A DNA stretch of 64,000 bases from a virus (lineage: Duplodnaviria > Heunggongvirae > Uroviricota > Caudoviricetes): positions 1 to 64,000 of IMG/VR virus record IMGVR_UViG_3300032286_000505. One strand, written 5' to 3'. The position numbers were made by a program, and so were the translations under genes. Every line of letters begins with the position of its first letter. The first letter of the stretch is position 1. This document shows, piece by piece, positions 11,545-56,982 of this stretch. The notes beneath the pieces were generated by a model that searched no databases, was not told the DNA's origin, and saw only the letters and a program-made list of their open reading frames with translations.

Positions 11545-11545
11545 G

Positions 11546-11853: not shown

Positions 11854-11987
11854 TAAAATCTATTGAGCTCATAAAAATATATTAGATAAAAGTTATTAAA
11901 AATGCTTGCTCTATAGTGTAAATAAAAGCATAATATAATTATAGAACACGAAGTTCTCAATATTCATTTCACACACAAGGAGAAGAT

Positions 11988-13384: not shown

Positions 13385-13385
13385 A

Positions 13386-15738: not shown

Positions 15739-15739
15739 T

Positions 15740-16652: not shown

Positions 16653-16659
16653 GAATAGT

Positions 16660-16688
16660 TTGACACAGGAATAGGCCTGTGTTATACT
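16660..16688 (+). promoter_or_regulatory. sigma70 promoter TTGACA-17-TATACT with a 7-bp inverted repeat in the spacer
   Basis: ACACAGG...CCTGTGT hairpin or operator lies between the hexamers. Confidence 0.55.
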
Positions 16689-16741
16689 GTAAACAAGTCC
16701 AAGCGATAGACGCCTGGCATTTTAAATAAAGGAACTTTATT

Positions 16742-40903: not shown

Positions 40904-41389
40904 ATGAAAAAGATCGTAGTAGCATTAGGGGTATGGCTCGCACTAGCTGTAAATTCCGCAAATGCAGAGCTAGTTCAACAGTTTAAAAATCCAGCTTTTA
41001 GCGGTATTGGATACAGCAGTCATGTATTGACTATTGACAGTATCGAAAAATCACGCAAAGATGCAATTGAAGCTGATAAAAAAGCAACCATTGCTAGAGC
41101 AGAAGCTGAACTGCTAAACACACCTTTGAATAGATTCATGGGCCTATTTCAAAGCCAAGTTTATGCTCAACTTGCAACACAATTAAGCAATAACCTATTC
41201 ACAAATAAATGCGCTAATGCAGACGGCACTGCAATTCCGGGCTGTGTAAATCCAACAACAGGTAACTTTAATCTAGACGGTAATACAGTTACCTGGGCCA
41301 AAGCCAATGACAAAGTTACACTGACAGTTGTAGATGCCAAAGGCACTGTAACTCGAGTTATTGTTCCAATTGCTAGTTTCAGTTTTTAA
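40904..41389 (+). CDS. csgF: curli assembly protein CsgF-like
   Basis: Signal peptide followed by ELVQQFKNPAFSG, matching the CsgF N-terminus TMTFQFRNPNFGG; RBS AAGGGAG. Confidence 0.65.
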   Translation: MKKIVVALGVWLALAVNSANAELVQQFKNPAFSGIGYSSHVLTIDSIEKSRKDAIEADKKATIARAEAELLNTPLNRFMGLFQSQVYAQLATQLSNNLFTNKCANADGTAIPGCVNPTTGNFNLDGNTVTWAKANDKVTLTVVDAKGTVTRVIVPIASFSF

Positions 41390-41399
41390 GGAGTAAACA

Positions 41400-42248
41400 A
41401 TGAAAGCAATTAAATTATCCTTAATCACACTAGCCGCAGTGACTCTAGTAGGTTGCTCAACTGTACGCCCATTTGGCAGTACACAAATCAAAGAAGAAGC
41501 TCGAGTCAGTGAAACTATCAATAAAAGTTTTGTTGATGTTCCAAGTCCAGCAGGCCCAGCAGTCACTGTGGCAGTCTATGGCTTCAAAGACCTAACAGGA
41601 CAGCGTAAACCAAGTTCAACATTGAGCTTGTTTAGTACAGCAGTTACACAAGGTGCTGAAGCATACTTGATGAAAAGTTTACAAGAAGTTGGCAATCGTC
41701 AATGGTTCACAGTAGTTGAACGTGTTGGCCTTGACAACCTATTGAAAGAGCGTCAGATGATCAAACAGACACGTGAGATCTACGAAGGCGCAAATGCCAA
41801 ACCTTTACCTCCACTACAAATGGCGGGCGTTATTTTAGAAGGCGGCATTATTGACTACAACAGTAACACCTTAACAGGCGGAACTGGAGCACGTTGGTTA
41901 GGTATTGGAACACAAACAGCTTACACTCAGGACGTGGTTGTTATTAGTCTGCGTCTAGTAAGCGTACAAACTGGCGAAGTCTTAACTACGGTAACAGTGG
42001 AAAAGAATTTGCTCAGTACCGCCGATGGTGCAACAGCGTTGAAGTTTTTCAACCAGGCAACACAGGCGTTCGAATTTGATACGAGTCAAACATTCAATGA
42101 GCCGGGCAACTATGCCCTACGTTCAGCAATTGAGACAGCGGTTATCGAATTGATTAAAAAAGGTGAGCGTCAAAACCTGTGGAAATTCAAAGAGCAAACA
42201 ACTGAGTTGGTTCAAGACAATACCTCACTTGAAGAAAGCAAAAAATAA
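41400..42248 (+). CDS. csgG: curli secretion channel lipoprotein CsgG
   Basis: Lipobox LVGCS; VAVYGFKDLTGQRKP, FSTAVTQGAEAYLMKSLQ, WFTVVERVGLDNLLKERQ, VILEGGIIDYNSNTLTGGTGARWLGIG, LRLVSVQTGEVL align along the length of E. coli CsgG. Confidence 0.85.
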   Translation: MKAIKLSLITLAAVTLVGCSTVRPFGSTQIKEEARVSETINKSFVDVPSPAGPAVTVAVYGFKDLTGQRKPSSTLSLFSTAVTQGAEAYLMKSLQEVGNRQWFTVVERVGLDNLLKERQMIKQTREIYEGANAKPLPPLQMAGVILEGGIIDYNSNTLTGGTGARWLGIGTQTAYTQDVVVISLRLVSVQTGEVLTTVTVEKNLLSTADGATALKFFNQATQAFEFDTSQTFNEPGNYALRSAIETAVIELIKKGERQNLWKFKEQTTELVQDNTSLEESKK

Positions 42249-42284
42249 AGTAAAACAGGTTGAACAGACCAGGAGCAAACAAAA

Positions 42285-43079
42285 ATGAAAAAAACACTAT
42301 TAACAATTTTATTAGCCGCAACACTACCGGCTTTTGCACAGACAGCAGTATCTGCACCATCAGCACCTATTATTCCATCAATGACTACAGTTAGTCCTAA
42401 TGCAACAGCCGCATTGGCCATTGCTACTACTAACCGTGTCTTCATTGATCAAAGTGGTGCAAACCCTAATGTCAACATGACACAAGATGGTACAGGCAAC
42501 AAGGCAGGTTCAGCTGCTCGACCAGTATACCTACGTGGCATTGACCAAGTTATTGTTACCAGACAAGTTGGTATCAACAATGAAATCAATCTAGAAGTAT
42601 CAAACGATACTACTGGAACAGGTAAAGGTGCAAAGGTCACTATTCAACAATTAGGTGACAGTAACACGGTTGACGCGGCCTGCGGATACGGTTTTGCCAG
42701 TAACGGCACAACGGCACTAACAGGATGTAACAATGCTGATCTAAACTGGAAATTCAATACCGGCAGTGATAGCAATGTATTACAGTTCCGTGGATCGGGA
42801 ACAGATCTAAAGAGTGCAATTGATGTTACAGGTGATACTAACAAGTTCTATGTAGATACTATTGGTAATAAACACAGCCAGACTATCAAAGTAGTAGGTA
42901 ACACTAACGAGTTCAATATTAACCAACAATCGACTGGTGCAGCAGGATCTAGCATTTGGGTTGATGTTAATGGTGATGGCAACAAGTTTGCTATGAGCCA
43001 AACTGGAACTATTGATAACGTTATTAATATCAAAAGTGTAGCCACAAGCGGCACATTTAACATCACTCAGAAGAACTAA
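42285..43079 (+). CDS. secreted curlin-repeat protein (CsgA/CsgB-like)
   Basis: Signal peptide; repeated x-I/V-x-Q-x-G-x-x-N-x-x-x-V units (IDQSGANPNVNM, IQQLGDSNTV, INQQSTG, MSQTGTIDNV). Confidence 0.5.
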   Translation: MKKTLLTILLAATLPAFAQTAVSAPSAPIIPSMTTVSPNATAALAIATTNRVFIDQSGANPNVNMTQDGTGNKAGSAARPVYLRGIDQVIVTRQVGINNEINLEVSNDTTGTGKGAKVTIQQLGDSNTVDAACGYGFASNGTTALTGCNNADLNWKFNTGSDSNVLQFRGSGTDLKSAIDVTGDTNKFYVDTIGNKHSQTIKVVGNTNEFNINQQSTGAAGSSIWVDVNGDGNKFAMSQTGTIDNVINIKSVATSGTFNITQKN

Positions 43080-43088
43080 GGAGCGGCA

Positions 43089-44267
43089 ATGAGAGTTGCC
43101 TCTCTTATCATTGGCTTATTGGTAGCCAGTTCAGCTTGGGCGGAAATTGGTTCCGTTACAGAAGCCTCTGGAACTGCTATCATTAAGCGTGGTAAAGAAA
43201 CTATTCAAGTTTCTAAAGGAACTCTTATTGAAACCAACGACCGAGTTGAGACCAAAAACGGTAAGATTAAAATTGTTTTTAAAGACGATACTAATGTTAC
43301 CGTTACTGAGTCTAGTAGCTTAATCATAGATGACTTTGTTTATGATCCCAAAAGCGGTGCTGGAAAGCTAGGACTTAAAGCAGCCGCAGGTACGATACGC
43401 TATGTATCTGGCAACATTGCTAAAGATCCTAAGAATGTAAAAATCAATACGCCTACAGCAGCCATTGCTGTTCGTGGTACTGATTTTGTTATGGCAGTCA
43501 GTGAAACTGGCGCTAGTATGGTCATGCTGATGCCCACCTGTGAAATAGAACAAAATGTAAACTTAAAAGGTCTTAGCTGTGGCAGTGGTGCTATCGATGT
43601 AGAAACACCAGCAGGCATTGTTAAACTAAATCGCCCTTATCAAGCTACCCTAGTTGAAACACTAAACGGCATGCCCAGTCCTGCTGTAGTTGTTGCTCTT
43701 AATGGCATGGCTATTGGCAATAACTTAATAGTTAGTCCTCCACAAACAACTACCGGTATAAATGTTATTGCTGCTGCCCGTGCTGCCGCAGTAGCTACAG
43801 GTGATGCAAAGAAAGACGATAAAAAAGATAAGCGTGACGATAAAGAAGATAAAGATGACGCCAAAGAAGAACGTCAACATGCTGCCAATAAAGATAACGG
43901 TGGAGCAAATAAGTCACAGAAGCAAGGACGCGGATCTAACGACAACAGTGAAGAAGAGAAAACTAGAACTGCTGCCAATAGCATCGATCCTCCTACAAAT
44001 AAAGAAGTTGCATCTAGTGAATCTACAGCAATAGGTGATATTGAAAATCCCTACGTTAAGAAGTTATGGAAAGACAAAAGCGAAACGCAACAAGTTGGAT
44101 GGATGTATGAAAGTTTAAGTCCAAACAATCGTAACTATGCAAATATCGTTATGCCTTTAGACACTAAAGTTCAGGTTACTGTAACACAAGATATGCAAAC
44201 CAATCAATGGAACTTTGCTCCAGGCAAACCTATAGGACAGATTGTTATCAATCAGAACTTCAGATGA
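43089..44267 (+). CDS. secreted FecR-domain protein with charged low-complexity linker
   Basis: Signal peptide; IIKRGKETIQVSKGTLIETNDRVETKNGKIKIVFKDDTNVTV resembles a FecR/DUF4974-type beta sandwich. Confidence 0.45.
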   Translation: MRVASLIIGLLVASSAWAEIGSVTEASGTAIIKRGKETIQVSKGTLIETNDRVETKNGKIKIVFKDDTNVTVTESSSLIIDDFVYDPKSGAGKLGLKAAAGTIRYVSGNIAKDPKNVKINTPTAAIAVRGTDFVMAVSETGASMVMLMPTCEIEQNVNLKGLSCGSGAIDVETPAGIVKLNRPYQATLVETLNGMPSPAVVVALNGMAIGNNLIVSPPQTTTGINVIAAARAAAVATGDAKKDDKKDKRDDKEDKDDAKEERQHAANKDNGGANKSQKQGRGSNDNSEEEKTRTAANSIDPPTNKEVASSESTAIGDIENPYVKKLWKDKSETQQVGWMYESLSPNNRNYANIVMPLDTKVQVTVTQDMQTNQWNFAPGKPIGQIVINQNFR

Positions 44268-46345
44268 AAAAGATATTTCTAGCCTTAATGTTGTTATGTG
44301 CCAATGCATATGCCGACCTAACTGATATCAAGTTTGGTCAAAGCCAGATCGCTGATAGTCAGTGGAATGTCAACGCTTGTCTTAATACCACTACCTGCCA
44401 AATCTACAGTAAGAATCCAGGTACTGCCTATAAGATTCCTTGGACTAACGGGCAGGTATCTTGGGCCTCAGGAGACTATGTAAAATTCAGCTCTAGCGGT
44501 AATGGTTCCTTTCCTTATACAGCAACACAATATACAAATGCAGGCACAGTAAAATCCACATTGGGCAACGGTAAGATTGTCAATATGGGTCCTGACTATT
44601 TCTTTTTTGTAGGCAGTGACAACAACACAGGACAGTTATTCAGCGGCAGTACTGGTATGAGCGGAACTACTGGTGTTAGTTGGACTGGCACATTAAACCC
44701 TACAGTAGCACAGGCCAACGCTTATGCCAATGCTACATATTCTACAGTTCCTTTAACAGCGGGACAGACTGCTACAACTACGCCAAGTAGTCCTCCGCCG
44801 GCACCTCCTAATTTGGGTTTCGAAACAGGTAATACTAACTCATGGACTATTAGTAATACTACAGGTGCCGCAAACTGGGGCAGTGGTTCTGGCGCGGCAG
44901 TTGTTACAGGACTCCAGCATACACCTGACGGCGGAAAGTCCTGGACCGTAACTCCGTATGGAACTTATATGTTGAGTCTACAGCCAGGTAGTGGAGCACC
45001 TACATTTGATGCTGCAACTACTAGTCTAGGTTTGACTTCAGCACAAAATATAGCAATTAAAAATTTATTAACGCAACAGGCACAGACTAGTGGTGGCGAT
45101 CCAACTCCTACTAATGCCTCTTGGGTTAAGAGGGATATGTCCTTAAAGGCAGGTGTAACGTATTCAATTGCATGGCAGTATCTATCAACTGATTATACAC
45201 CATTCAATGACGGTAGTGTTATTACACTGGTTCACAAAACAGACAGTAGTAAAGTTCCTACACTAAACAACGCGGTTCGAAACTATTCCTTATTAGGATT
45301 TACCAATCCTGGAACAGGTGACTATTCTACCAACAGTTACGGATCAACTGGATGGCAGGTAGCAACATTTACAGTTCCAACTGATGGAGATTATAGTTTA
45401 GGATTTGCAGTTTTTAATCTTGGAGACACTGCTCTAAGTCCTATTTTACTAATTGACGAAATGCAGGGAACTACTATGTTAAACGGATCAGCGTTTAATC
45501 CAGTTCCTCCTAACCCGGGTACTGGCGCTCCAGCAACGGGTGGCGGTACAGTTGAACCTACTTGGCCAACAACTAGCGACATTACAGCAGGACAGACTAC
45601 ACAAAAAAACGCTGCCAAGACTCGTGTTACTAATATCCAATTAGGTAACTATGTTTATATTGATCAAAAGATTGGTAGCAGTAGTAATACAGTAACTATT
45701 GAACAAACTGGCAACTACAACAAGATTAGTGGGTTGGGTGGCGGAACTTACGCGGTGTCAGATGGTGACAGCAATACTATTAACATTAAGCAAGGCGATA
45801 CTTTGGGTAAAAACTTGATTGAGTTTAACATTGTAGGTAATACTAATAATGTCAGTATATGGCAAGCACGTAATCCTACAACAGGTTTACAAGATGGCAA
45901 CGAAAGTGGTGGACACTATCTAGGCCTAAATATAAACGGTAACACAAATAATCTATCATTAAAACAAAGTAACAACGGCGGAACATCAAGTGGACACTTT
46001 GCCTATGTTGATGTTACAGGTAACGGCAACAACGGGACATTAAACCAGCTAGGCAATGGTGAAAAAACATTCTTTGGTATTGTTAATGGCAACACCAATG
46101 TGTTTGATATTACCCAACAAGGTTCAGGCAGTTACTTTGATCTAAGTTTAACAGGCACCGGTCACAATGTCTCTGCTAACCAAAAAGACGCAGGAAGTCA
46201 CAAAGCCACAATCAACTTAACCAACGCTGGTGGTGCTAGCAATGTTACCCTAGTTCAACAAGGTGCTACAGCACAAAACATCAACATTACACAGCAGTGT
46301 GCTACATTATCCGGTTGCTCCGTAAGTGTTACACAAGGTCAATAA
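44264..46345 (+). CDS. large secreted protein with C-terminal curlin-like repeats (693 aa)
   Basis: Start moved to MKKIFLALMLLCANAYA (ATGA overlap with upstream stop); C-terminal third carries 10 or more N-x-x-x-V-x-Q-x-G-x-x-N units. Confidence 0.5.
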   Translation: MKKIFLALMLLCANAYADLTDIKFGQSQIADSQWNVNACLNTTTCQIYSKNPGTAYKIPWTNGQVSWASGDYVKFSSSGNGSFPYTATQYTNAGTVKSTLGNGKIVNMGPDYFFFVGSDNNTGQLFSGSTGMSGTTGVSWTGTLNPTVAQANAYANATYSTVPLTAGQTATTTPSSPPPAPPNLGFETGNTNSWTISNTTGAANWGSGSGAAVVTGLQHTPDGGKSWTVTPYGTYMLSLQPGSGAPTFDAATTSLGLTSAQNIAIKNLLTQQAQTSGGDPTPTNASWVKRDMSLKAGVTYSIAWQYLSTDYTPFNDGSVITLVHKTDSSKVPTLNNAVRNYSLLGFTNPGTGDYSTNSYGSTGWQVATFTVPTDGDYSLGFAVFNLGDTALSPILLIDEMQGTTMLNGSAFNPVPPNPGTGAPATGGGTVEPTWPTTSDITAGQTTQKNAAKTRVTNIQLGNYVYIDQKIGSSSNTVTIEQTGNYNKISGLGGGTYAVSDGDSNTINIKQGDTLGKNLIEFNIVGNTNNVSIWQARNPTTGLQDGNESGGHYLGLNINGNTNNLSLKQSNNGGTSSGHFAYVDVTGNGNNGTLNQLGNGEKTFFGIVNGNTNVFDITQQGSGSYFDLSLTGTGHNVSANQKDAGSHKATINLTNAGGASNVTLVQQGATAQNINITQQCATLSGCSVSVTQGQ

Positions 46346-46781
46346 ATACAGCATAGAAGAACATTATGCACAAATTTATTGTATGAGAGCAAACGAATTT
46401 ATTAGTGAACTAGTTAATCCCGACGTGCAGGATATGCGTTTCCACCATAAGCAAGCAATTGGGGATTTTGTTTATACTGCTACTACAGAAATAGAACCCT
46501 ATCACAAAACTAAAATGTTAGTCATTAGAGCACTTGACGGTAAAGAAGCAATAGGCAAGGCCAAATTTTATATTGATCACGGTGATACATTAACAGCGGC
46601 ATTGACTACAGTTCGACCCGAATACCAAAAGCACGGCATTGCCAGCACCATGTATGCGTATGCTAAAATGTTAGGCAACGACATTGAGCCTAGCAAGAAT
46701 CAACTACCGCCCGGAAAGGCCATGTGGCGCAGTTGGAAAAAATCCGGCGATGCTAAATTCCTACTTCCTGACAAAAAATAA
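46326..46781 (+). CDS. GNAT-family N-acetyltransferase
   Basis: RPEYQKHGIASTMYAYA resembles the GNAT acetyl-CoA-binding motif A. Confidence 0.45.
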   Translation: MLHKVNKYSIEEHYAQIYCMRANEFISELVNPDVQDMRFHHKQAIGDFVYTATTEIEPYHKTKMLVIRALDGKEAIGKAKFYIDHGDTLTAALTTVRPEYQKHGIASTMYAYAKMLGNDIEPSKNQLPPGKAMWRSWKKSGDAKFLLPDKK

Positions 46782-46786
46782 ACTTT

Positions 46787-46830
46787 GAAGATCTTTCCAA
46801 AATCTTCATTTGTGATCATTTTGGATCACC
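46787..46830 (+). terminator. tandem hairpins (TGAAGATC...ATCTTCA; GTGATC...GATCAC) with T-runs
   Basis: Directly after the GNAT gene. Confidence 0.4.
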
Positions 46831-47279
46831 TGTATACTGTATAAACACACAAATACACTATACAGCGAGACATAAGGTTGGCAGGCCGGGCTACAATTCT
46901 GCTGAAAAATCCGTTCTGATGTGTGACGGTAATCATTCTTTTCCTCCGCAAAAGGCTTCAACTCACTACCTCAAGCCTTGACTTGAGATGCCTTAAAAAC
47001 GCCAGTCCCTTGACTGTTCACGTTTGAGTTGTCGTAACAGGTTGCACAATATTTTCCAATACGTCCATGAGAGCAATGACACCGAAGCTCTCTTAAAAAT
47101 CGTAGTAGGTTGGGTAAGGTACAGAGCCCAGAGACGTGGAATACAAATACCTACTGTCCTAGTGTGGCTGAAGCAACTCAGCAAACATCTCATGCGGCAT
47201 CCTTAACAGGGTGTCGTATGGCCTCACAATCTAGCAAAACTTCAAAATTCTTCCTCTGAGGAATTTAATAAATATCTGT
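46831..47279 (+). other. long GC-elevated untranslated leader with hairpins and a 13-bp palindrome TTCCTC-T-GAGGAA at 47262..47274
   Basis: 480 nt without a credible ORF, upstream of the CHASE2-cyclase gene. Confidence 0.4.
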
Positions 47280-49346
47280 ATGTTTAAAAAGCTCTTACTT
47301 AATCCTTGGACTGCATTGTTCACCCTCGCACTAGTTCTACTAGTTAGATTCATTGATCCCTCATTTGTAGAATCAGTTCGACTTAGGTATTTTGATCAAT
47401 TAATTACCAGTCAACCCACAAATACTGCTCCCGTACACACAGTCAATATAGATGAAGCTACCTTAGACAAATATGGGCAATTCCCATTCCCTAGAGGAAC
47501 TTATGCAAACATTATTAAAGACCTTTATGATAGAAATGCTGGACTTGTTGTGTTCAATATCCTTATGCCTGAGCAAGATAGGTTTGGTCAAGATAATCAA
47601 TTGGCCCGAGTGTTAGAGAAATATCCTACTATACTCCCGGAGTTGGGAAGCATATCAGGAAAGAACAAAACATTTGGTTCTGCTGTACAGGTAATTGGTC
47701 AAGATCCTGGCGGTGCACTAGTCGACTATCTAGGCATTATTGCCAACGTCCCTGTTTTAGAAGAACGTGCAGCCGGCGTGGGCATTGTAAATACCTTTCC
47801 TGAGATCGACGGTGTTGTTCGTCGTATGCCGTTGCTTATTATGAGTAACAATACTGTGCATCCTAGTATAGCATTAGAGACGCTACGCATTGCCGCAGGT
47901 GATACAAAGATACAGGTTAAAATAACAGACATGGGCGTAGAAGCTCTACGTGTTCCAAAGTTGAGTAAAATTACTGTAGATTCGTTAAGCCGAGTTTGGA
48001 TTGATTGGGCACAAACTCCTAAAGAACATAGCTTGGCTGATTTGCCAAAAGACTTTAACGGTGAAATTGTTATAGTAGGATTAAGTGCAGCAGGGCTGGT
48101 TCAACCAGTTGCTACTGCCCGTGGCGAGGTGTGGCCGCAATATTTGCAGGCCAGTTTGCTAGGCACAATGCTTAACGGCAAGACTATTCAACGTCCGAGC
48201 TATGCAGATGATTTAGAAATTGTTGCCATCTTACTAGCAGGCGTTGCTTTACTGTTATTAACAAGGTGGACTTATGTTGGACTTGCCGCAGTGGTTGTAT
48301 TGGTTGGTGGTGGTGTCGCTGGCAGCATCTATGCTTACAGCAATTTTTTATGGTTATTCGATACTACTGCCTTTGCAGTTGGCACAACTTTGGTCGCTTT
48401 GCATGCCTATGGCGTCAAGTTTGTAAGTGAGTTCTTACAGAAGTCAGCAATCAAAAAACAGTTTGGAAGTTATGTGAATCCTGTTATTGTGGAGCGCCTA
48501 CAAAAAGATCCTAGTTTTATCAAATTGGGCGGTGAGAAAAAAGACCTTACAGTTATCATGAGTGACATGCGTAACTTTACAGGACTAGGTGAAACCTATG
48601 GTGACGACGTTGTAGCATTTACACAAACCATGAACCGTTACATGACTGCCATTGCGGAGCCTATCCTACGCAACAACGGTTGTTTGATCAAATTCATTGG
48701 TGATGCGTCATTACACGTACACGGTGCTCCTATTCAAGAAGAACAAGATCCTGACCACGTGTTGGCCGCTGTTCGTACTGGTTTAGAAATGTTACACGCC
48801 GTTGAACTGTTTAACATTGAACTTACCAAAGAAGGCAAACCTTTGGTAGGTTGCGGACTAGGTATCAACACAGGTCCTACACTAATTGGTAACATTGGTA
48901 GCAAAGACCGTTTTGGTTATGACGTACTAGGTGACAGTGTAAGTCTTACTGCTCGACTAGAAGGACAGACCAAGAATTACGGTGTGTTGATTATCATCAG
49001 TGAATTTACACAGGCTAGAGTAGGGGACAACTATTTTACAATCGAACTTGATAACATTGCTGTTAAAGGTAAGAGCATTGGAGTTACTATCTACACAGTG
49101 TTCTACAATCCAGATATCACAGTGGCAGCAGATTGGATCATGGCTCGTGATATGCACAATGGTATGTTGACTTATTATCGTCAGCAAAAATGGGATCTTG
49201 CCATTGAACTATGTCAAGAACTTACAGGAGAGTTTGATGGTAAGATGGATGATTACTATACGCTATGGCAAGAACGTATTGCTGAAATGCGCTCTAGAGA
49301 TCTTCCTGCAGATTGGGATGGTACTTACAGGGCTACGTCAAAGTGA
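47280..49346 (+). CDS. CHASE2 sensor domain, TM helices, class III adenylate/guanylate cyclase
   Basis: N-terminal TM then periplasmic CHASE2-like domain; three TM helices; cyclase core KDLTVIMSDMRNFTGL...FIGDASL...LGDSVSLTARLEG. Confidence 0.75.
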   Translation: MFKKLLLNPWTALFTLALVLLVRFIDPSFVESVRLRYFDQLITSQPTNTAPVHTVNIDEATLDKYGQFPFPRGTYANIIKDLYDRNAGLVVFNILMPEQDRFGQDNQLARVLEKYPTILPELGSISGKNKTFGSAVQVIGQDPGGALVDYLGIIANVPVLEERAAGVGIVNTFPEIDGVVRRMPLLIMSNNTVHPSIALETLRIAAGDTKIQVKITDMGVEALRVPKLSKITVDSLSRVWIDWAQTPKEHSLADLPKDFNGEIVIVGLSAAGLVQPVATARGEVWPQYLQASLLGTMLNGKTIQRPSYADDLEIVAILLAGVALLLLTRWTYVGLAAVVVLVGGGVAGSIYAYSNFLWLFDTTAFAVGTTLVALHAYGVKFVSEFLQKSAIKKQFGSYVNPVIVERLQKDPSFIKLGGEKKDLTVIMSDMRNFTGLGETYGDDVVAFTQTMNRYMTAIAEPILRNNGCLIKFIGDASLHVHGAPIQEEQDPDHVLAAVRTGLEMLHAVELFNIELTKEGKPLVGCGLGINTGPTLIGNIGSKDRFGYDVLGDSVSLTARLEGQTKNYGVLIIISEFTQARVGDNYFTIELDNIAVKGKSIGVTIYTVFYNPDITVAADWIMARDMHNGMLTYYRQQKWDLAIELCQELTGEFDGKMDDYYTLWQERIAEMRSRDLPADWDGTYRATSK

Positions 49347-50396: not shown

Positions 50397-50461
50397 AGTT
50401 TGCTCCCAATACAGCTATATTTACTGAGTAATATAACTATCGAAATATTGGTAGATAACTC

Positions 50462-50490
50462 TTGACGGTTAAATAAACTTAGTATATAAT
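50462..50490 (+). promoter_or_regulatory. sigma70 promoter TTGACG-17-TATAAT
   Basis: 17-bp spacer, directly upstream of tRNA-Arg. Confidence 0.6.
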
Positions 50491-50497
50491 AAACTAT

Positions 50498-50569
50498 CTG
50501 GCGTTAGGTAAATGGATATACCAGGAGCCTTCTAAGCTCTTATTCCAGGTTCGATTCCTGGACGCCGGA
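50498..50569 (+). tRNA. tRNA-Arg (anticodon TCT)
   Basis: Hand-folded cloverleaf: acceptor CTGGCGT/ACGCCGG, D-arm GGTA/TACC, anticodon loop CTTCTAA, T-arm CCAGG-TTCGATT-CCTGG, encoded CCA. Confidence 0.7.
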
Positions 50570-50586
50570 CCAATATAAAAATAACA

Positions 50587-51372
50587 ATGAGCCGAAAATT
50601 AACCGTAATTCTAAGAACCTGCGGAAGGGTGTTTGCACAACACGGTACAAGATACTTAGACAAAACCAAGCCAGAAATTATCAATGTCTGTGTTAGCAGT
50701 CTTATAGACAGTATCAATCGGGTAAAAGGTCATCAAATAGAGCTGTTTGTTCTAGACGATGCTAGCCCAGACGAATGTGCCAGTGATTTGATTAAAATTG
50801 TTAGTCAGTGTAAATTTCCTGCAACTTTTGTCCCTGTGCAAAATGGTAGCGGCAACGCATTTACTATGAAGGAGGTCTACAATATTGTAGAAACTCACTG
50901 TACAGATCTTTGGTACCATGTAGAAGATGATTATCTACATTTTCCAACTGCAATACAGGATCTTATAGACAGCGTAGATCAGTTTGAAGCCAACACAGAG
51001 CAAATGGTAGCCATTAATCCACATGATGACATATGGCGCTATAACATGAATCTCTATAAGAGTTTTATCCTATTAGGACCTTATAGGCATTATAGAACAG
51101 TTGAGCATACTACCTATACTTGCCTTGCCAGTAAAGATATCTACAACAAGTATAAAAAGCATTTTCAAGATGTTGTAACACTTACTGAACAGGGCGCTGA
51201 TTGGGTTGAAGACAAAAGTATCAATCTGGTATGGCGTAAGGATGATGTCATGTTGTTCAGTCCAATTCCCAGTCTAGCACTGCACATTATGGATCCTAGC
51301 GGCAAAGATCCTTATATTGATTTTGATGCTTTATGGAACAGTGTTCCAGAATTGTGGAGGCTCGGTGAGTAA
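50587..51372 (+). CDS. putative glycosyltransferase (GT2-like)
   Basis: N-terminal LTVILRTCGR and ELFVLDDASPDE (DxD-like). Confidence 0.4.
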   Translation: MSRKLTVILRTCGRVFAQHGTRYLDKTKPEIINVCVSSLIDSINRVKGHQIELFVLDDASPDECASDLIKIVSQCKFPATFVPVQNGSGNAFTMKEVYNIVETHCTDLWYHVEDDYLHFPTAIQDLIDSVDQFEANTEQMVAINPHDDIWRYNMNLYKSFILLGPYRHYRTVEHTTYTCLASKDIYNKYKKHFQDVVTLTEQGADWVEDKSINLVWRKDDVMLFSPIPSLALHIMDPSGKDPYIDFDALWNSVPELWRLGE

Positions 51373-52114
51373 AAATATCACACTTTTTATAGCAGACAAC
51401 AGAAATCATGCTCTGGCCAAGTTTGCTATTGAAAAGACTCTAGAGAACATTGACTGTAGAGAAATTATTACCTACAGTGATCGTTCCATTATAGATGGTG
51501 CCAAACATGTACCTCTGAGAAAAGAAATCAATCTATATGACTACAGTAGTATTGTGCTTAAACAACTATGGAGCCATGTGGAAACTGATCATGTGCTGAT
51601 CATTCAATATGACGGAATGGCCATAAGGGGAGACCTTTGGGACGATGCCTGGCTACAATATGATTACATCGGTGCAGTATGGCCGTGGCCCATTAAGGGT
51701 AGAAATATGGGCAATGGTGGATTTAGTCTACGCAGTCGCAAACTTATCGATGCCTGTAGAGACAATGCAATACAGTTAGGCGGTGAAAGTGGACAAAACG
51801 AAGACACCGCTATCTGTGTAGAGTTTAGGCCTTACTTAGAAGAAAAATATAGTATTCAATATGCATCCAAAGAAACTGCTACCAAGTTTAGTACGGAAAA
51901 TTACTTTCAAGGAGCTAGCTTTGGATTCCATGGTCTATGGAACGCTGCTAAATTCATGAACAAGAAAGATGTTGAATTCATAATGAATCACATACAGCCC
52001 TACACATGGAAAGATGCTAGTAAAACTCGAGTGTGGATACAGATGCTTATGGAGAGAGGATTTGACGATCTTGTTATGCAGACAATAAAAATACTCGAAA
52101 AGGCAGATCAATGA
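51317..52114 (+). CDS. DUF5672-like protein (glycosylation-associated); start may be GTG 51365
   Basis: GGFSLRSRKLIDAC and WDDAWLQYDYIG blocks shared with 61125..62009. Confidence 0.45.
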   Translation: MILMLYGTVFQNCGGSVSKNITLFIADNRNHALAKFAIEKTLENIDCREIITYSDRSIIDGAKHVPLRKEINLYDYSSIVLKQLWSHVETDHVLIIQYDGMAIRGDLWDDAWLQYDYIGAVWPWPIKGRNMGNGGFSLRSRKLIDACRDNAIQLGGESGQNEDTAICVEFRPYLEEKYSIQYASKETATKFSTENYFQGASFGFHGLWNAAKFMNKKDVEFIMNHIQPYTWKDASKTRVWIQMLMERGFDDLVMQTIKILEKADQ

Positions 52115-52965
52115 AGATATACGATTGTTTTACTTTTAATAACGAACTAGACCTGCTGGAACTTAGGCTAGAAGAAATGTCTAGCAGTGTTGATTATTTT
52201 GTTGTTGTAGAAGCAAACCACACTTTCCAAGGATCTCCCAAATCTCTGCACTTAAAGAACAACTGGGACCGATACAGCAAGTGGCACAATCAAATTATAC
52301 ATGTCGTGGTCGAAGACATGCCTAATGACGGTAATGCTTGGCACAATGAACACCACCAGAGAAACAGTATCATGCGCGGTTTGGTTAGTGCTGCTGATGA
52401 CGATTTTATCATTGTAGGAGACGTAGACGAAATACTGCGAGCAGCTACGGTAGACTCTCTAAGAACAGATCCTAGGGACCTGGTAGGATTTAGAATGCCC
52501 TATTTTAATTTCCGGCTAAACTATATGCTTCTAAAGGATAAAGAAACTTATCACGTTTGGACCGTGGGCAGTCGTAAAAAATATCTAGTTCCTAACCCAG
52601 AAAGTTTTAGGAATAGGCGCTTTGGCTTACAGGGACTCAGTTACGGATTTGACGACGGTCGTACACAAGTCTGCGAACATGCTGGATGGCATTTTACCTA
52701 TCTAGGCAATACAGACTGGGTCCGAGACAAGATACGTAGTTTTGCTCACAGCGAATTGAACAGACAGGATGTTCTGGATCAAATTAATGTGGAAGACATG
52801 ATGAACAAGGGCGTGGGCTTTAACCCACTAAATCCTTTACCTTTTATCAAGGTAAAATTAGATGACTACTTTCCTGCGACATTGATAGCAGACACCATTA
52901 AATACGCAGATTATATCACAACCGGCGGAACTGAATCTGCCAGAGAATACTTACCGAAAGAATAA
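52111..52965 (+). CDS. GT17-like glycosyltransferase (bisecting GlcNAc transferase-like)
   Basis: IYDCFTFNNELDLLELRLEEM...DYFVVVEANHTFQG N-terminal signature; paralogue of 60128..60943. Confidence 0.55.
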   Translation: MKIYDCFTFNNELDLLELRLEEMSSSVDYFVVVEANHTFQGSPKSLHLKNNWDRYSKWHNQIIHVVVEDMPNDGNAWHNEHHQRNSIMRGLVSAADDDFIIVGDVDEILRAATVDSLRTDPRDLVGFRMPYFNFRLNYMLLKDKETYHVWTVGSRKKYLVPNPESFRNRRFGLQGLSYGFDDGRTQVCEHAGWHFTYLGNTDWVRDKIRSFAHSELNRQDVLDQINVEDMMNKGVGFNPLNPLPFIKVKLDDYFPATLIADTIKYADYITTGGTESAREYLPKE

Positions 52966-52967
52966 AA

Positions 52968-53516
52968 ATGGAACACTTTTTTCAAAACATACACGGATGG
53001 TTTAACTTCATCAGCATTTACAATTATGTAATAGAGGACGGAGAAGACGGAGATCACTTTGTCGAAGTAGGCGCTTGGAAAGGACGTAGTGCTGCTTACA
53101 TGGCTGTAAATATTGCCAATAGCGGCAAGAAGATCAAGTTTGATGTAGTAGATACTTGGCAAGGTAGTGAAGAACACAAAGATGACGACAGTGTAAAGAA
53201 TGATAATCTATACCAAGAATTCTTAACCAACATGGAACCTGTCAAAGACTATTATACACCCTTGCGAACGACCAGCTTAGAAGCTGCTGCCCAGTACCCG
53301 GACGACAGTCTTAGCTTTGTATTGTTGGATGCAAGTCATACATACAACGACGTAGCAGCAGATATAGAAGCTTGGTTGCCAAAAGTCAAAAGCGGCGGCA
53401 TCCTTGCAGGAGATGATTATCATCACACATGGCAAGGCGTAGTCGATGCTGTTGACGAACTACTACCTGATGCGGAAATTATCGACAATGTCAGCTGGGC
53501 CTACAGAAAGCCATGA
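52968..53516 (+). CDS. class I SAM-dependent methyltransferase (Methyltransf_24-like)
   Basis: VEVGAWKGRSAAYMA glycine-rich SAM loop; LDASHTY; GGILAGDDY. Confidence 0.55.
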   Translation: MEHFFQNIHGWFNFISIYNYVIEDGEDGDHFVEVGAWKGRSAAYMAVNIANSGKKIKFDVVDTWQGSEEHKDDDSVKNDNLYQEFLTNMEPVKDYYTPLRTTSLEAAAQYPDDSLSFVLLDASHTYNDVAADIEAWLPKVKSGGILAGDDYHHTWQGVVDAVDELLPDAEIIDNVSWAYRKP

Positions 53517-54328
53517 ACATATTAATCACAGGAGCTGCTGGATACATAGGACAACATCTTATCAAGTATCTAACTTCTGTTGATTATAACATTGATACCT
53601 TAGATATTTTAGATTCAGCTAATCCTATTGACATTAGGTCGTTGCCTAAGATTAAGAAAGAGTATCATACTGTGATACATCTTGCCGCGTTGGTTAGAGT
53701 AAATGAATCTGTTAAACACCCCGAAGAATATTACAAAACAAACATAACAGGCACTCTCAACATTCTTAACCAAATTAACTTTAAGAATTTTATATTTGCC
53801 AGTACTGGTGCTGCCGAACACTGCAACAGTCCTTATGCACTCAGTAAACGAGCAGCTGAAGATCTAGTCAGCAGCATCTGTAACAGAAATAGCATAGACT
53901 ACACAATTTTTAGATTTTATAACGTACTGGGCAGTGATGGTCCTGCACCTACAAACACAGATGGTCTTTTTTACAATTTAATCAAAGCAGAGTCGACAGG
54001 GGTGTTTAACTTATATGGTACAGATTATTGTACCAAAGATGGCACCTGTGTTAGAGATTATGTGCATGTTAACGAAATATGCAGTGCTATCATAAAAGCA
54101 ATAGACTCACCGTCAAACAGTGTAGAAAACTTAGGACATGGCACTGGATGGACAGTGCGAGAAATCATCAATACTTACAAACAAGCAAATCTTGTTGACT
54201 TTAAAGTTAATGAATTTCCTCGCAGGACGGGCGATTTAGAAATTAGTGTGCTAGATCGTCCGTCTAAGTATATGGAAACTCTCTATACAATAGAACAACT
54301 ACTAACTAACCCCTCATTAAAATTATGA
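53513..54328 (+). CDS. NAD-dependent sugar epimerase/dehydratase (SDR)
   Basis: ILITGAAGYIGQHL Rossmann motif; catalytic YALSK (Y-x3-K). Confidence 0.75.
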   Translation: MNILITGAAGYIGQHLIKYLTSVDYNIDTLDILDSANPIDIRSLPKIKKEYHTVIHLAALVRVNESVKHPEEYYKTNITGTLNILNQINFKNFIFASTGAAEHCNSPYALSKRAAEDLVSSICNRNSIDYTIFRFYNVLGSDGPAPTNTDGLFYNLIKAESTGVFNLYGTDYCTKDGTCVRDYVHVNEICSAIIKAIDSPSNSVENLGHGTGWTVREIINTYKQANLVDFKVNEFPRRTGDLEISVLDRPSKYMETLYTIEQLLTNPSLKL

Positions 54329-55170
54329 ACGAATTAACCATTGTATGGAATAGAGCTAGATCTGCCAGTTGGGAAAGCACTTGGATAGAATACCTTTTTC
54401 GAAATATTCCTCACAAGACTATAGAAAATTTAGATCGCTCACAGTTTATAGACAACAGTATAATTGTTGAAAGTATCTGCTGGGCTCCGCACCATAACCA
54501 GTATTGTCAAGACCTGCATGATCGTGGTCTTAAATTTGGTATCATACATTTAACAGACGAAAGCACTAGAGATAATATTGACAGCTATCGACATGCAAAA
54601 TTTGTTCTACGTAATTACTATAGAGAAGGTCTGCCAGAAAAAGTCTTGAACATTCCCTTGGGCTATAATGACAACTTTACGGACCTCACAAATAATCTCA
54701 ATTCTAGAGAAAGAAAATATCTTTGGAGTTACGTAGGGGAACGCTGGGACCAAAACAGAAACGTCATGGCGGGTGCCATGCGAACTGTCCCTAATGGGAA
54801 CTTGTATGTTGTTCATCATACCGGACCTAGGATGAGTGTAGTTGATATGAGTCGCATGTATCGAGACAGCGTGTTTGTGCCTTGCCCTAGAGGCGCAATC
54901 AGCATGGATAACTTTAGAGTGACAGAAGCACTAGAAGCCGGCTGCATCCCTATTGTAGAACGTAGTGACTATTGGGCAAAAATGCACGGTCCTAATCCCC
55001 CTTTGATACAAATTGGCAATTGGCAGGAGGTGCCAAATATCATTGCTGACCTAGCCAATGATCCAGCACGTTTAGAAATGGTTAGATTAACCTGTAAACA
55101 ATGGTGGGAAGAAAGAAAATTACAGCTAACAGATCAAATAGAAGATCTAGTAGCATCAAGAATGGGTTAA
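54325..55170 (+). CDS. exostosin-like (GT47-like) glycosyltransferase, paralogue 1
   Basis: C-terminal FRVTEALEAGCIPIV resembles the exostosin motif; paralogue of 55860..56696. Confidence 0.4.
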   Translation: MNELTIVWNRARSASWESTWIEYLFRNIPHKTIENLDRSQFIDNSIIVESICWAPHHNQYCQDLHDRGLKFGIIHLTDESTRDNIDSYRHAKFVLRNYYREGLPEKVLNIPLGYNDNFTDLTNNLNSRERKYLWSYVGERWDQNRNVMAGAMRTVPNGNLYVVHHTGPRMSVVDMSRMYRDSVFVPCPRGAISMDNFRVTEALEAGCIPIVERSDYWAKMHGPNPPLIQIGNWQEVPNIIADLANDPARLEMVRLTCKQWWEERKLQLTDQIEDLVASRMG

Positions 55171-55171
55171 T

Positions 55172-55876
55172 ATGCAATATAGTCAACTTATAACACAAAG
55201 CGATAAATTCTTCTGGCACGGATATATTCCTTTTTACGAACAATTCTTTAAAGATAGAGATTTCAAAAGCATTGCTGAGATCGGTGTTTTTAAAGGAAAC
55301 AGTGTTCGTTGGCTGATGGAGAGATTCCCTAATAGCAAAGTACTGGCAGGAGATATTTTACCTGTACAGGACACCTGGCCTCAAGATACTAGGGTAAGTT
55401 ATATTCAAATGGATCAGTCTCAGGCAGCTGATGTTGATACTTTTTTTGGAAACAATTCCTTTGATCTCATCATTGATGATGGTAGTCATATACCAGAACA
55501 CCAAGTTACAAGTCTAGTAATCGGGTGGAATAACTTAGAATCAGGTGGCGTCTATATTCTAGAAGACATTCATACTAATCTTGGGCATGACAAAGGCACA
55601 GCAATGAGCGCTTTGATGGCCATAGACCATTGCCTGCGTACAGGGCTACCGTTTAACTTTGATAAAATTACCAAAAATAACTATATGACTGCACCAGATG
55701 CAGCCAATATTGTTGGAAGTCTAAAGCGAGTTAGCTTTTTTAGACGTACACAGTTGCCCCTAAGCTGCCATAATTGCGGCAGCACTGACTTCGATTACAG
55801 TCAACTTCTTTGTAGTTGTGGTGTTGATCTATTCAGCGCCACTGACAGTATGACCTGTGTTATTGAGAAAATTTAA
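55172..55876 (+). CDS. class I SAM-dependent methyltransferase (Methyltransf_24-like)
   Basis: IAEIGVFKGNSVRWL and IIDDGSH motifs. Confidence 0.5.
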   Translation: MQYSQLITQSDKFFWHGYIPFYEQFFKDRDFKSIAEIGVFKGNSVRWLMERFPNSKVLAGDILPVQDTWPQDTRVSYIQMDQSQAADVDTFFGNNSFDLIIDDGSHIPEHQVTSLVIGWNNLESGGVYILEDIHTNLGHDKGTAMSALMAIDHCLRTGLPFNFDKITKNNYMTAPDAANIVGSLKRVSFFRRTQLPLSCHNCGSTDFDYSQLLCSCGVDLFSATDSMTCVIEKI

Positions 55877-56696
55877 TCAATTCGTTTGCAATACGATTAA
55901 TTAGGTTCTGTTTGTAGTTTTGCCACCAAATTAACGTATCAAATCTGCGCTTTTCTAGGGCAAGTTTGTCCTGCAATAACTTGTTAATCATGTCGGGTGC
56001 CTGGTCCCAATTCTCGATCATAAGTAACGGATGGTCAGGACCATACAATTGTGACCAATAATCGCTAGCCTCTACTATAGGCAGTGCTCCTACCTGTAGA
56101 GCTTCGTTGACTCTTAGTGTGTCAAAACTCATATTTCCTCGGCTGCAAGGCACAAAGATGCTTTTACTATAGTATTCAGCCATTTCTATGCTGGTAATAG
56201 CAAAGGAAATATGACTGGGAATATAGTAGTAAACACCCATAGGCACAGACAGCATGGCATCTGCCATATGCTTACGAGTAGGCTTGCCTTCAATGTGTCC
56301 AAAGAAGCTCCAGTTGAATTCGCGTTCAAACACTGTACGGTCTGGAATGTCAGTAGGACTGTCCTTCATCCAACCTGTGCTGAAGTTGATTACATTGGGA
56401 CCGCAATCTTTGTAATAGGTTCTCAACACTAGATCCGCATACTGGTAAGCTTCTGTACTGTCCACTAGCCATTCATCGGACAAATGTACTAACACAAACT
56501 TTTTTCCTTGACTGTGCAGCCGTTTGAGATAGGCTAGGTTATCAACTGTGCTGTTATAGACAATGATAGATCTATCTTCTTCTAGTTGCAGAGCATGGTC
56601 CTCAACTGTTTGGTGAGGTACCTTTTTAAAAATGTATTCAATCCAGTCTCGACTCCAATCAACGTGTCGATCTACTTGCCATATTAGTTTAATCAT
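55860..56696 (-). CDS. exostosin-like glycosyltransferase, paralogue 2
   Basis: LRVNEALQVGALPIV; convergent with the + strand cluster. Confidence 0.4.
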   Translation of the reverse strand: MIKLIWQVDRHVDWSRDWIEYIFKKVPHQTVEDHALQLEEDRSIIVYNSTVDNLAYLKRLHSQGKKFVLVHLSDEWLVDSTEAYQYADLVLRTYYKDCGPNVINFSTGWMKDSPTDIPDRTVFEREFNWSFFGHIEGKPTRKHMADAMLSVPMGVYYYIPSHISFAITSIEMAEYYSKSIFVPCSRGNMSFDTLRVNEALQVGALPIVEASDYWSQLYGPDHPLLMIENWDQAPDMINKLLQDKLALEKRRFDTLIWWQNYKQNLINRIANELIKFSQ

Positions 56697-56771
56697 ATGA
56701 GGTATTTATAGACTAGTAAAAAGTACTAAAAACTTTTTGATCAATTTGTGGCAAAATTACAACAATAATTG

Positions 56772-56800
56772 TTGACAAATATAAATAGTTCAAGTACACT
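56772..56800 (+). promoter_or_regulatory. sigma70 promoter TTGACA-17-TACACT (tandem 1 of 3)
   Basis: 17-bp spacer. Confidence 0.5.
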
Positions 56801-56865
56801 AGCTGTATGGTTAGATAGTGATGTAAAGAAAGACCCTACAATTTGCTCAAGTTTGCAAATAAGGG

Positions 56866-56894
56866 TTGACAAGAGAACTAAATAACTGTACAAT
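56866..56894 (+). promoter_or_regulatory. sigma70 promoter TTGACA-17-TACAAT (tandem 2 of 3)
   Basis: 17-bp spacer; shares AAATAACTGTA spacer text with tandem 3. Confidence 0.55.
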
Positions 56895-56953
56895 AGAGAC
56901 TAGTTAGGAAGAGAAGTTGTTAAAAACTTTTTGTTCAAAAGAATAAAAAGAGG

Positions 56954-56982
56954 TTGACAAGGATGCTAAATAACTGTATAAT
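56954..56982 (+). promoter_or_regulatory. sigma70 promoter TTGACA-17-TATAAT (tandem 3 of 3)
   Basis: Perfect consensus. Confidence 0.6.

Follow-up and report, generated by a model that had tools for sequence, protein, structure and literature searches.

We analysed a 64-kb stretch of DNA, henceforth the window, from the IMG/VR virus record IMGVR_UViG_3300032286_000505, and describe a gene cluster that lies at positions 50587-56696 and continues within the adjoining array of transfer RNA (tRNA) genes. This region is very probably a phage-borne, fast-changing island for building glycans: its roughly 11 genes encode soluble enzymes that could assemble and methylate a sugar chain. Eight of the products are predicted glycosyltransferases, which represent four families; the DUF5672 proteins are included in this count because they model as glycosyltransferases of the GT-A fold. 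An initial annotation, made from the sequence alone, had listed GT2-like, GT17-like, DUF5672-like and exostosin-like genes, two Methyltransf_24 methyltransferases and a sugar epimerase/dehydratase. All these families were recovered by hidden Markov models, profiles or structure models, the open reading frames (ORFs) lie where they had been placed, and none was reassigned to an unrelated family. Approximately 58 ORFs of the window were scanned against Pfam or PHROGs. No membrane segment was predicted in any of the island enzymes, all of which appear to be soluble; among the ORFs of the window with at least 150 residues, only 27208-28392 and the cyclase described below contain at least three segments resembling transmembrane (TM) helices.

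The core of the island consists of seven co-directional genes on the plus strand (50587-55876), with stop and start codons that at several junctions overlap or are separated by no more than 3 nt. The run is preceded by a sigma-70-type promoter-like site (TTGACG-17-TATAAT, positions 50462-50490, plus strand), which matches the consensus in 11 of 12 positions and whose function is predicted from this match, and by a gene for tRNA-Arg(TCT) (50498-50572, plus strand), which was called by ARAGORN and scores 58.5 bits with the Rfam tRNA model. The promoter-like site ends 7 nt before the tRNA gene, and the ATG of the first glycosyltransferase follows 15 nt after it. A leader composed of promoter and tRNA-Arg had been proposed to drive the cluster; both elements are present, and L077, the closest long relative, shows the same arrangement. 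There, a promoter-like site matching the consensus in 12 of 12 positions (5400-5428) is followed by tRNA-Arg(TCT) (5540-5614), an additionally called ORF of 235 residues (5554-6261) and then the cluster. In a second relative, L080, no tRNA-Arg(TCT) gene was found upstream of the cluster. No terminator-like site was found at the gene boundaries of the plus-strand run. Given the tight packing of the genes, the lack of a terminator at their boundaries and the promoter-like site with its counterpart in L077, it is a fair inference from the sequence that positions 50587-55876 form one early-type operon.

The first gene of the run (50587-51372) encodes a GT2-like GT-A glycosyltransferase of 261 residues, whose assignment was made at the level of the family. 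The protein alone reaches E=0.012 and 15.9 bits with the Pfam GT2 model (PF00535; cutoff 23.3); its family comprises 392 representative homologues, 46 of the 61 sampled members match PF00535, and the family profile matches the GT2 enzyme SpsA at 2.5e-6. Asp114 and Asp115 are invariant in this family, and Asp57 and Asp58 are nearly so (at least 90%). The orthologues in L077 and L080 are 84% and 74% identical, respectively. The second gene (51326-52114) encodes a DUF5672 protein, predicted to be a glycosyltransferase of the GT-A fold (PF18922, 2.7e-20, 73.1 bits, cutoff 24.4). Its start is ambiguous: a TTG at 51317 opens the ORF, the ATG at 51326 gives 262 residues, and a GTG at 51365, which follows a GGAGG motif, gives 249 residues. 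For DUF5672, 1042 homologues were found. The structure model shows a Rossmann-like GT-A fold; as the profile matched none of the PDB sequences, the fold call rests on the model. On this basis, DUF5672 can be read as a family of GT-A-fold glycosyltransferases, apparently for the first time; the single paper retrieved by searching full texts for this name was unrelated.

The third gene (52111-52965), the start of which overlaps the stop of the DUF5672 gene (ATGA), encodes a GT17-like glycosyltransferase of 284 residues (PF04724, 1.5e-26, 93.8 bits, cutoff 26). The motif Asp104-x-Asp106-Glu107 is kept in 66 to 68 of the 69 viral homologues and in both copies of the window. It agrees with the acidic DxD-type motif for metal and nucleotide-sugar binding in inverting GT-A enzymes, which is essential in GnT-III. 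The eukaryotic founder of the family transfers beta-1,4-GlcNAc to the core of N-glycans and has a type II membrane anchor, which was not detected in the phage protein, for which the maximal Kyte-Doolittle mean over 19 residues is about 1.0. A sequence search found no solved GT17 structure. The two following genes encode a methyltransferase dependent on S-adenosylmethionine (SAM; 52968-53516) and a nucleotide-sugar epimerase/dehydratase of 271 residues, which is an extended short-chain dehydrogenase/reductase (SDR; 53513-54328). The former matches Methyltransf_24 (Pfam, 1.4e-18) as well as TylF (3.5e-5) and CmcI (0.021), and is probably a TylF/CmcI-like sugar O-methyltransferase. The latter matches the Pfam Epimerase model at 4.3e-32, and the motifs GxxGxxG and YxxxK are visible in its sequence. 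Its best NCBIfam model is GalE (TIGR01179, 2.1e-47), yet the score of 161.6 is below the equivalog cutoff of 262.3, and its 271 residues compare with about 330 for GalE. The last gene of the run (55172-55876) encodes a second SAM methyltransferase (Methyltransf_24/FtsJ-like; Pfam, 3.5e-6; methyltransferase phrog_21658, 8e-25). The similarity between the two Methyltransf_24 proteins is limited to a stretch of 57 residues with 30% identity (E=4e-4).

Between the epimerase gene and the second methyltransferase gene lies the gene of an exostosin-like glycosyltransferase (54325-55170, 281 residues), which resembles the families GT47 and GT114. The match to the Pfam model Exostosin_GT47 (PF03016) is marginal (1.9e-8; 34.5 bits, cutoff 33.4). 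The AlphaFold2 model has a mean predicted local distance difference test (pLDDT) score of 95.3 and consists of two Rossmann-like halves, which is the GT-B fold; Foldseek matches include SenB, EXT1/EXT2, PimA and A075L. The family profile matches human EXT1 at 8e-7 over the C-terminal 106 residues, and A075L of the chlorovirus PBCV-1 at 4.6e-4 over 68 residues only. A structural comparison of the model with A075L (8asa) gave E=6.7e-6, a TM-score of 0.39 and 17% identity, at rank 39 of the fold search. Glu79, Arg96, Arg145, Arg198 and Glu201 are invariant in the exostosin-like family, and Asp78 is kept in 85 of 86 members. In A075L, a GT114 enzyme, Asp73 is the catalytic base, and Arg158 and Arg208 bind the phosphate (PMC11571054). 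Arg208 aligns with the invariant Arg198. Asp78/Glu79 and Arg145 are found at positions comparable to those of the catalytic and phosphate-binding residues of A075L; as they lie outside the aligned stretch, we infer their equivalence.

A second exostosin-like GT-B glycosyltransferase is encoded on the minus strand (55860-56696). It is 37% identical to the first one (E=9e-63) and represents a separate subfamily, with orthologues of its own that are 47-52% identical. PF03016 does not match this protein, for which Pfam gave only RXYLT1_C (25.8, cutoff 27); every residue invariant in the exostosin-like family is retained. As noted initially, the two paralogues are arranged convergently: the minus-strand gene faces the operon, and the 3' ends of this gene and of the second methyltransferase gene share 17 nt. 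For this gene, a T4-type late promoter was considered and rejected: the motif TATAAATA is located 6 nt before the ATG, but it occurs 5 times in the window, compared with 5.8 expected occurrences, and is only a weak hint.

Three further glycosyltransferase genes, all on the plus strand, follow, two of them between tRNA genes. A second GT17-like gene (60128-60943; Pfam, 5.6e-21, 75.4 bits, cutoff 26) is placed between tRNA-Ser(GCT) and tRNA-Cys, and a second DUF5672 gene (61125-62009; Pfam, 3.8e-11, 43.3 bits, cutoff 24.4) with a GT-A-like product between tRNA-Arg(TCT) and tRNA-Trp. The order GT17, tRNA-Cys, tRNA-Arg, DUF5672 agrees with the inverted second pair that had been noticed in the array. 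At position 63497, a GT2 glycosyltransferase begins, as had been stated; only its 5' part (63497-64000) is contained in the window, and its match to Glycos_transf_2 is just over the cutoff (Pfam, 2.2e-5, 24.9 bits, cutoff 23.3). The orthologue in L077 has 222 residues and is 74% identical.

The cluster had been described as partly duplicated. Second copies do exist, but they are old: the paralogues are 29% (GT17), 30% (DUF5672) and 37% (exostosin-like) identical, and relatives lack the extra copies. A recent tandem duplication is ruled out by these identities of 29-37%. Moreover, the two tRNA-Arg(TCT) genes are dissimilar, so that no unit composed of a tRNA and a gene was copied. A nucleotide alignment showed that positions 50581-55876 are collinear with L077 at 74% identity and that collinearity resumes at 56863. 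For the interval in between (55877-56862), to which the minus-strand exostosin-like gene belongs, nothing corresponding exists in L077 or L080. Similarly, only 9 nt and no gene separate tRNA-Ser(GCT) from tRNA-Cys in L077, at the site where the window contains the second GT17-like gene, and the second DUF5672 gene is absent from both L077 and L080. As the alignments with these relatives show no counterparts at the insertion points, the extra copies are, judged from the sequence, single-gene cassettes, which were gained in the lineage of the window or lost from the others. The GC content of these cassettes is unremarkable. A foreign composition of the island as a whole was likewise rejected: its GC content is 0.37-0.43, and the GC content at third codon positions (GC3) is inside the range of the other genes of the window. 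The position of the genes among tRNAs had also prompted the idea that tRNAs might be glycosylated; this idea is without support, and insertion into the spacers between tRNA genes near an HNH gene is simpler.

The HNH endonuclease gene in question (62536-63150) is part of the tRNA array, and its 3' end overlaps tRNA-Leu(TAA) (63115-63198). A copy with 68% identity adjoins a cluster of three GT17 genes in the IMG/VR locus L040. The HNH endonuclease may be the agent that moves the cassettes. Dense tRNA arrays are also found in the relatives, with 42 genes in about 9 kb of L080 (11835-20718) and 26 genes in about 7.6 kb of L077 (12479-20053); compared with the window, their order is shuffled. Past the minus-strand exostosin-like gene lies an ORF-poor segment of 0.86 kb (56863-57721), which has a nucleotide identity of 69-79% in L077 and L080. 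It contains tandem near-consensus sigma-70 promoter-like sites at 56866 and 56954 (another one is located just upstream at 56772), a hairpin with a T-run at approximately 57223-57250, and a tRNA-like element (57632-57718), which reaches 26.7 bits with the tRNA-Sec model, remains below the gathering score and was not called by ARAGORN. This segment may be an unannotated RNA gene.

The comparison with relatives also showed that the site of the island is fixed and its content is not. L077, L080/L081, L087 and a 355-kb contig share the order CHASE2 cyclase, a few small genes, GT2-like, DUF5672, variable interior, exostosin-like and tRNA array. In the interior of L080, the SDR gene is replaced by an ORF of 456 residues, a Methyltransf_21 gene, a CmcI-type methyltransferase gene and an extra Methyltransf_24 gene; the 355-kb contig contains a GT34 gene, a HAD-nucleotidyltransferase gene, a sulfotransferase gene and a GT17::Methyltransf_24 fusion. 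A fixed site with a changing interior is the pattern of bacterial surface-glycan loci. In several relatives, a fatty-acid desaturase gene, which was not found in the window, is situated beside the island (3805-4512 in L077, and equivalents); it hints at an envelope-directed neighbourhood.

The initial annotation had considered GT17-like and exostosin-like folds to be rare in bacterial viruses. For reference phages this is true: no glycosyltransferase PHROGs were matched, GT17 was found in 2 of 50,697 phage records and exostosin-like proteins in none of them. It does not hold for uncultured contigs, among which we identified 75 GT17-like IMG/VR loci. Exostosin-like genes were found in 53 IMG/VR loci by an alignment-based scan; about 15 of these loci are metagenome-assembled genomes (MAGs) of giant viruses, and about 6 are close relatives of the phage type. 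Scans of IMG/VR for close relatives gave nothing for either exostosin-like gene of the window and one weak match for the second GT17-like gene. For one cultured phage, Synechococcus phage S-SKS1, BFVD also contains a protein with an exostosin domain. The neighbours in the 75 viral GT17 loci are predominantly genes for SDR (48 loci), GT34 (38), a family of unknown function (31), GT9-like proteins (27) and sugar C-methyltransferases (26), followed by split transketolase (20), radical SAM/SPASM proteins (16) and Methyltransf_24 (15). The gene order exostosin-like, GT17, Methyltransf_24 recurs on other contigs, and both an exostosin-like::Methyltransf_24 fusion protein (P0070) and a GT17::Methyltransf_24 fusion protein exist elsewhere. 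Additionally, the second-best structural match to the exostosin-like model in BFVD is a Sylvanvirus protein of 593 residues annotated as containing DUF5672, which suggests an exostosin-like/DUF5672 fusion. Linkage is not confined to viruses: on a Simkaniaceae MAG chromosome contig (L078/L140), exostosin-like and GT17-like genes are adjacent, amid GT9, GT11, GT61, GT4, SDR and UDP-glucose dehydrogenase genes, and in six Pelagibacteraceae genomes (L199-L213) they are about 2.5-6 kb apart. Exostosin-like, GT17-like, DUF5672 and Methyltransf_24 genes are repeatedly linked in phages and in some bacteria, as a module that is apparently undescribed; the link is supported by the fusion proteins, and the families evidently work together.

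Families, folds, motifs, synteny and variability were read directly from the data; for chemistry, timing and acceptor, we propose the following pathway. A methylated glycan, as suggested initially, is reasonable as the predicted product, and its assembly from several residues in the cytoplasm is the most likely and best-supported part of this pathway. The soluble enzymes would use nucleotide sugars of the host, one of which would be epimerised by the SDR. The core machinery would comprise three GT-A-type glycosyltransferases (GT2-like, DUF5672 and GT17-like), one exostosin/GT114-like GT-B enzyme, the epimerase and the two SAM methyltransferases, and the four cassettes at 55860 (minus strand), 60128, 61125 and 63497 would add further glycosyltransferases. 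The chain would grow residue by residue in the cytoplasm to several sugars, of which the TylF/CmcI-like methyltransferases would methylate one or two. The acceptor would be a lipid-linked envelope glycan of the host, for example an intermediate of lipopolysaccharide (LPS) core, O-antigen or capsule, and export would be accomplished by the host's own flippase, ligase or transporter. The altered surface of the infected cell might then block superinfection or stop re-adsorption of the progeny.

We tentatively favour such a host envelope glycan over virion proteins as the acceptor. The preference is based on four observations. First, the bacterial homologues lie in loci of the surface-polysaccharide type (Simkaniaceae, Pelagibacteraceae). 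Second, related viral islands contain GT9-like and heptose-pathway genes. Third, the island is located directly 3' of a block that is envelope-directed (40904-49346): it encodes CsgF, CsgG, a 264-residue ORF, a FecR-domain protein, a 712-residue ORF with a faint curlin-repeat match and a nucleotide cyclase with a CHASE2 sensor; the cyclase is found next to the glycan island also in L077, L080 and L087. Fourth, LPS-type glycosyltransferases of related pelagimyophages have been interpreted as serving O-chain modification (PMC7029224).

Several findings weigh against a host-envelope acceptor. Nothing in the sequence names the acceptor, and the early timing is based solely on consensus promoter matches. 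The window contains no initiating phosphoglycosyl transferase, no flippase, polymerase or ligase (Wzx/Wzy/WaaL) and no ABC exporter, in contrast to a complete O-antigen or capsule gene cluster. Polytopic membrane proteins with at least seven TM segments were found in none of the 128 viral GT17 or exostosin-like loci (2.0 Mb), in comparison to 23 of the 79 bacterial loci; consequently, remodelling of a host glycan would depend wholly on host machinery that accepts a foreign structure. Known phage serotype conversion uses membrane-bound Gtr proteins and is typical of temperate phages, and neither trait applies to this phage; a Gtr-type module (GtrA, GtrB, type-specific Gtr) was not present among the Pfam matches, and the island proteins are predicted to be soluble. 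Furthermore, the closest bacterial homologues of the exostosin-like protein are at most 37% identical and belong to unrelated taxa such as Chlamydiae and Babeliales, which gives no sign of a recent capture from a surface-glycan locus of a host. Finally, the enzyme set closely matches the toolkit used by chloroviruses for capsid glycosylation.

The latter point leads to virion proteins as acceptors, a quite possible if somewhat less probable alternative, according to which the soluble enzymes put a methylated oligosaccharide on capsid, tail or fibre proteins and thus create a variable glycan coat. No island enzyme has a membrane segment, and the lack of polytopic membrane proteins in all 128 viral loci agrees with a pathway that runs entirely in the cytoplasm and uses soluble acceptors. 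The list of chlorovirus capsid-glycan enzymes is alike, with exostosin-type, GT-A and GT17 enzymes plus methyltransferase domains (PMC5408694, Table 4). The cytosolic xylosyltransferase A075L, which acts on the capsid glycan, is of nearly equal length, is matched by the exostosin-like profile (E=4.6e-4) and shares the arginine at the position of Arg198; the fusions of glycosyltransferase and methyltransferase recall the domain layout of A064R; and giant-virus MAGs frequently encode distant relatives of the exostosin-like protein. Moreover, virion-protein glycosylation has been proven in mycobacteriophages, according to the account given in PMC12619734 of Freeman et al. 2023. However, the 64 kb of the window contain no structural gene, and no capsid or tail genes adjoin the island. 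The similarity to chloroviruses is remote, at 17% identity and with the A075L structure in 39th place of the fold search; in 15 loci from giant-virus MAGs, neither GT17 nor DUF5672 nor Methyltransf_24 genes accompany the exostosin-like gene; and the literature examined reported no glycosylated virion for T4-like aquatic phages. An extended version of this idea, which we regard as doubtful, is that the island is the counterpart in bacterial viruses of the chlorovirus system: very large T4-like aquatic phages would then perform autonomous cytoplasmic protein glycosylation and produce a methylated virion glycan that varies between strains, with a module shared with giant viruses and some intracellular bacteria.

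It is improbable that the glycan is built on a small molecule, on a lipid or on a protein that the phage itself encodes and that is secreted, as the product of the 712-residue ORF would be if it were a substrate of the adjacent CsgG/CsgF channel. The island directly follows the block with CsgF, CsgG, the FecR-domain protein, the 712-residue ORF and the CHASE2 cyclase, this neighbourhood is kept in relatives, and enzymes with such GT-B and GT-A folds also act on small molecules and lipids, in agreement with fold matches such as SenB, MshA and PimA. On the other hand, the case for a secreted protein is made by adjacency alone, and phage Melnitz has a CHASE2-type cyclase and curli genes and no GT17-like match in any of its records. 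As the cyclase of phage HTVC008M is likewise found without a GT17 match, the cyclase/curli and glycan modules are separable. Least probable is a hypermodification of DNA, in which sugars are attached to hydroxymethylated bases of the phage genome for evading restriction, as in T4 and in pathways linked to 5mYOX or ThyS: phage enzymes of the GT-A and GT-B folds, sometimes encoded beside an epimerase, do glycosylate DNA, but these pathways cluster with a C5-methyltransferase plus 5mYOX or with a ThyS-type hydroxymethylase (bioRxiv 10.1101/2023.12.21.572611), none of which was found among the roughly 58 scanned ORFs of the window as distinct from the rest of the genome, and in spite of the early type of the putative promoter and of a generic GT-B fold match to the T4 alpha-glucosyltransferase, eight glycosyltransferases of four families with two TylF/CmcI-like methyltransferases far exceed known DNA glycans, while the neighbours of the homologues are sugar-pathway genes.

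Among known systems, the glycosyltransferase clusters of the LPS/O-chain type in hypervariable regions of pelagimyophages and cyanomyophages (Zaragoza-Solas et al. 2020, PMC7029224) belong to the closest. The phages are related (the CHASE2 cyclase of the window shares 35-41% identity with its counterparts in Melnitz and HTVC008M), both have the CsgG/CsgF block and a transfer-messenger RNA (tmRNA), glycosyltransferases and sugar-nucleotide enzymes are located in a variable region, and a host-surface function is predicted in both cases. In contrast, GT8 dominates there, whereas GT17-like, exostosin/GT114-like and DUF5672 enzymes are found here; the clusters belong there to the tail-fibre region, and the island here is flanked by the cyclase gene on one side and a large tRNA array on the other, some of its genes being inserted singly among the tRNAs; and the genomes of Melnitz and HTVC008M have about 140-150 kb, whereas the syntenic relatives of the window are on contigs of 330-393 kb.

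The chlorovirus enzymes, namely the GT114 xylosyltransferase A075L of PBCV-1, A064R with its GT-A domains and methyltransferase, and the products of strain-specific GT17 genes, are likewise virus-encoded, soluble and small (about 280 residues), and they also combine exostosin-type GT-B, GT-A and GT17 activities with methyltransferases. The profile match to A075L spans the nucleotide-sugar-binding motif and the conserved arginine, and a fold match to A64R was found as well. They differ in that sequence identity is at most about 17% and the fold rank modest, that the chloroviruses modify their major capsid protein, whereas the phage has a bacterial host and a predicted acceptor, and that the chlorovirus genes are dispersed in the genome, whereas the phage island is operon-like. 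The bacterial loci of Simkaniaceae and Pelagibacteraceae resemble the island in that exostosin-like and GT17-like genes are adjacent or about 2.5-6 kb apart and are accompanied by SDR and other glycosyltransferase genes; the proteins, however, are only 26-37% identical to those of the phage, and polytopic membrane proteins are encoded in 23 of 79 bacterial and in 0 of 128 viral loci. The mycobacteriophage system, as far as it is described in the citing account, is a precedent for virion proteins as acceptors, since phage glycosyltransferases act there on structural proteins of the phage. Its genes reportedly lie beside capsid genes and belong to other families, and capsid and tail-tube proteins are said to be modified.

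With respect to its origin, the window is derived from an uncultured T4-like aquatic myophage, a distant relation of the pelagimyophage/Melnitz group. This placement from sequence comparison is based on the CHASE2 cyclase (47280), which at the protein level has an identity of 41% with its counterpart in Methylophilales phage Melnitz and of 35% with the one in Pelagibacter phage HTVC008M. The metagenomic contigs with syntenic relatives have 138, 355 and 393 kb, and those with other homologues 330-354 kb; these sizes suggest a very large phage genome. A megablast search with the glycan block (50400-57000) gave no match among the 50,697 phage records. Looking up exact sequences, we found nothing on record for the GT17-like protein and only one identical contig, of 5.2 kb, for the exostosin-like protein. 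The "moraphage" jumbo lineage (PMC12619734) was rejected as the group of this phage, as it is a distinct group with Bacteroidota hosts. Inferring a host from bacterial homologues failed: the best ones are at most 37% identical and scattered taxonomically.

The larger genes of the window are all on the plus strand and include those for NrdA, NrdB, nicotinamide phosphoribosyltransferase, RIIA and the CsgF/CsgG block; one tmRNA gene and 23 tRNA genes were found. The tmRNA (11502-11872) has the tag peptide ANDEAFLMAA; the best Rfam model is the betaproteobacterial type (121 bits), and the permuted two-piece model also reaches 104.5 bits. A two-piece tmRNA is known from Melnitz-type phages. An EcoRI-like restriction endonuclease gene overlaps a gene for an N6-adenine DNA methyltransferase of the D12 class (30368-32105), which looks like a phage-borne restriction-modification pair. 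Heme oxygenase is followed by a ferredoxin-dependent bilin reductase (37398-38586); this is a pigment-pathway pair, and there is no sign of a cyanobacterial host. Other genes encode enzymes of NAD salvage (14719-18139), namely a cytidylyltransferase-like/Nudix fusion protein and the nicotinamide phosphoribosyltransferase, a PAAR-motif protein of 321 residues (8004-8969), and a redox and metabolic run (11988-14338) with an AhpC/TSA peroxiredoxin, a class II aldolase, a GDSL-like hydrolase and a protein of the carboxymuconolactone-decarboxylase family.

Both virus-encoded glycosylation systems and islands of glycan genes in aquatic phages of the T4-like type are already known; the present island differs in its enzyme families, in its position, which borders a tRNA array and extends into it, and in its cassette-like turnover. 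Whatever the acceptor, DUF5672 can be read as a GT-A-fold glycosyltransferase family, and the linked set of exostosin-like, GT17-like, DUF5672 and Methyltransf_24 genes stands. If the enzymes act as predicted, a lineage of very large aquatic phages devotes eight glycosyltransferases to a sugar structure that changes from one close relative to another, and this variation suggests an arms race at the surface of the cell or the virion. If virion proteins are the acceptor, tailed phages outside the mycobacteriophages would glycosylate their own particles; if it is the host envelope, the island would offer a first test of the long-assumed remodelling of O-chains by lytic marine and freshwater myophages.

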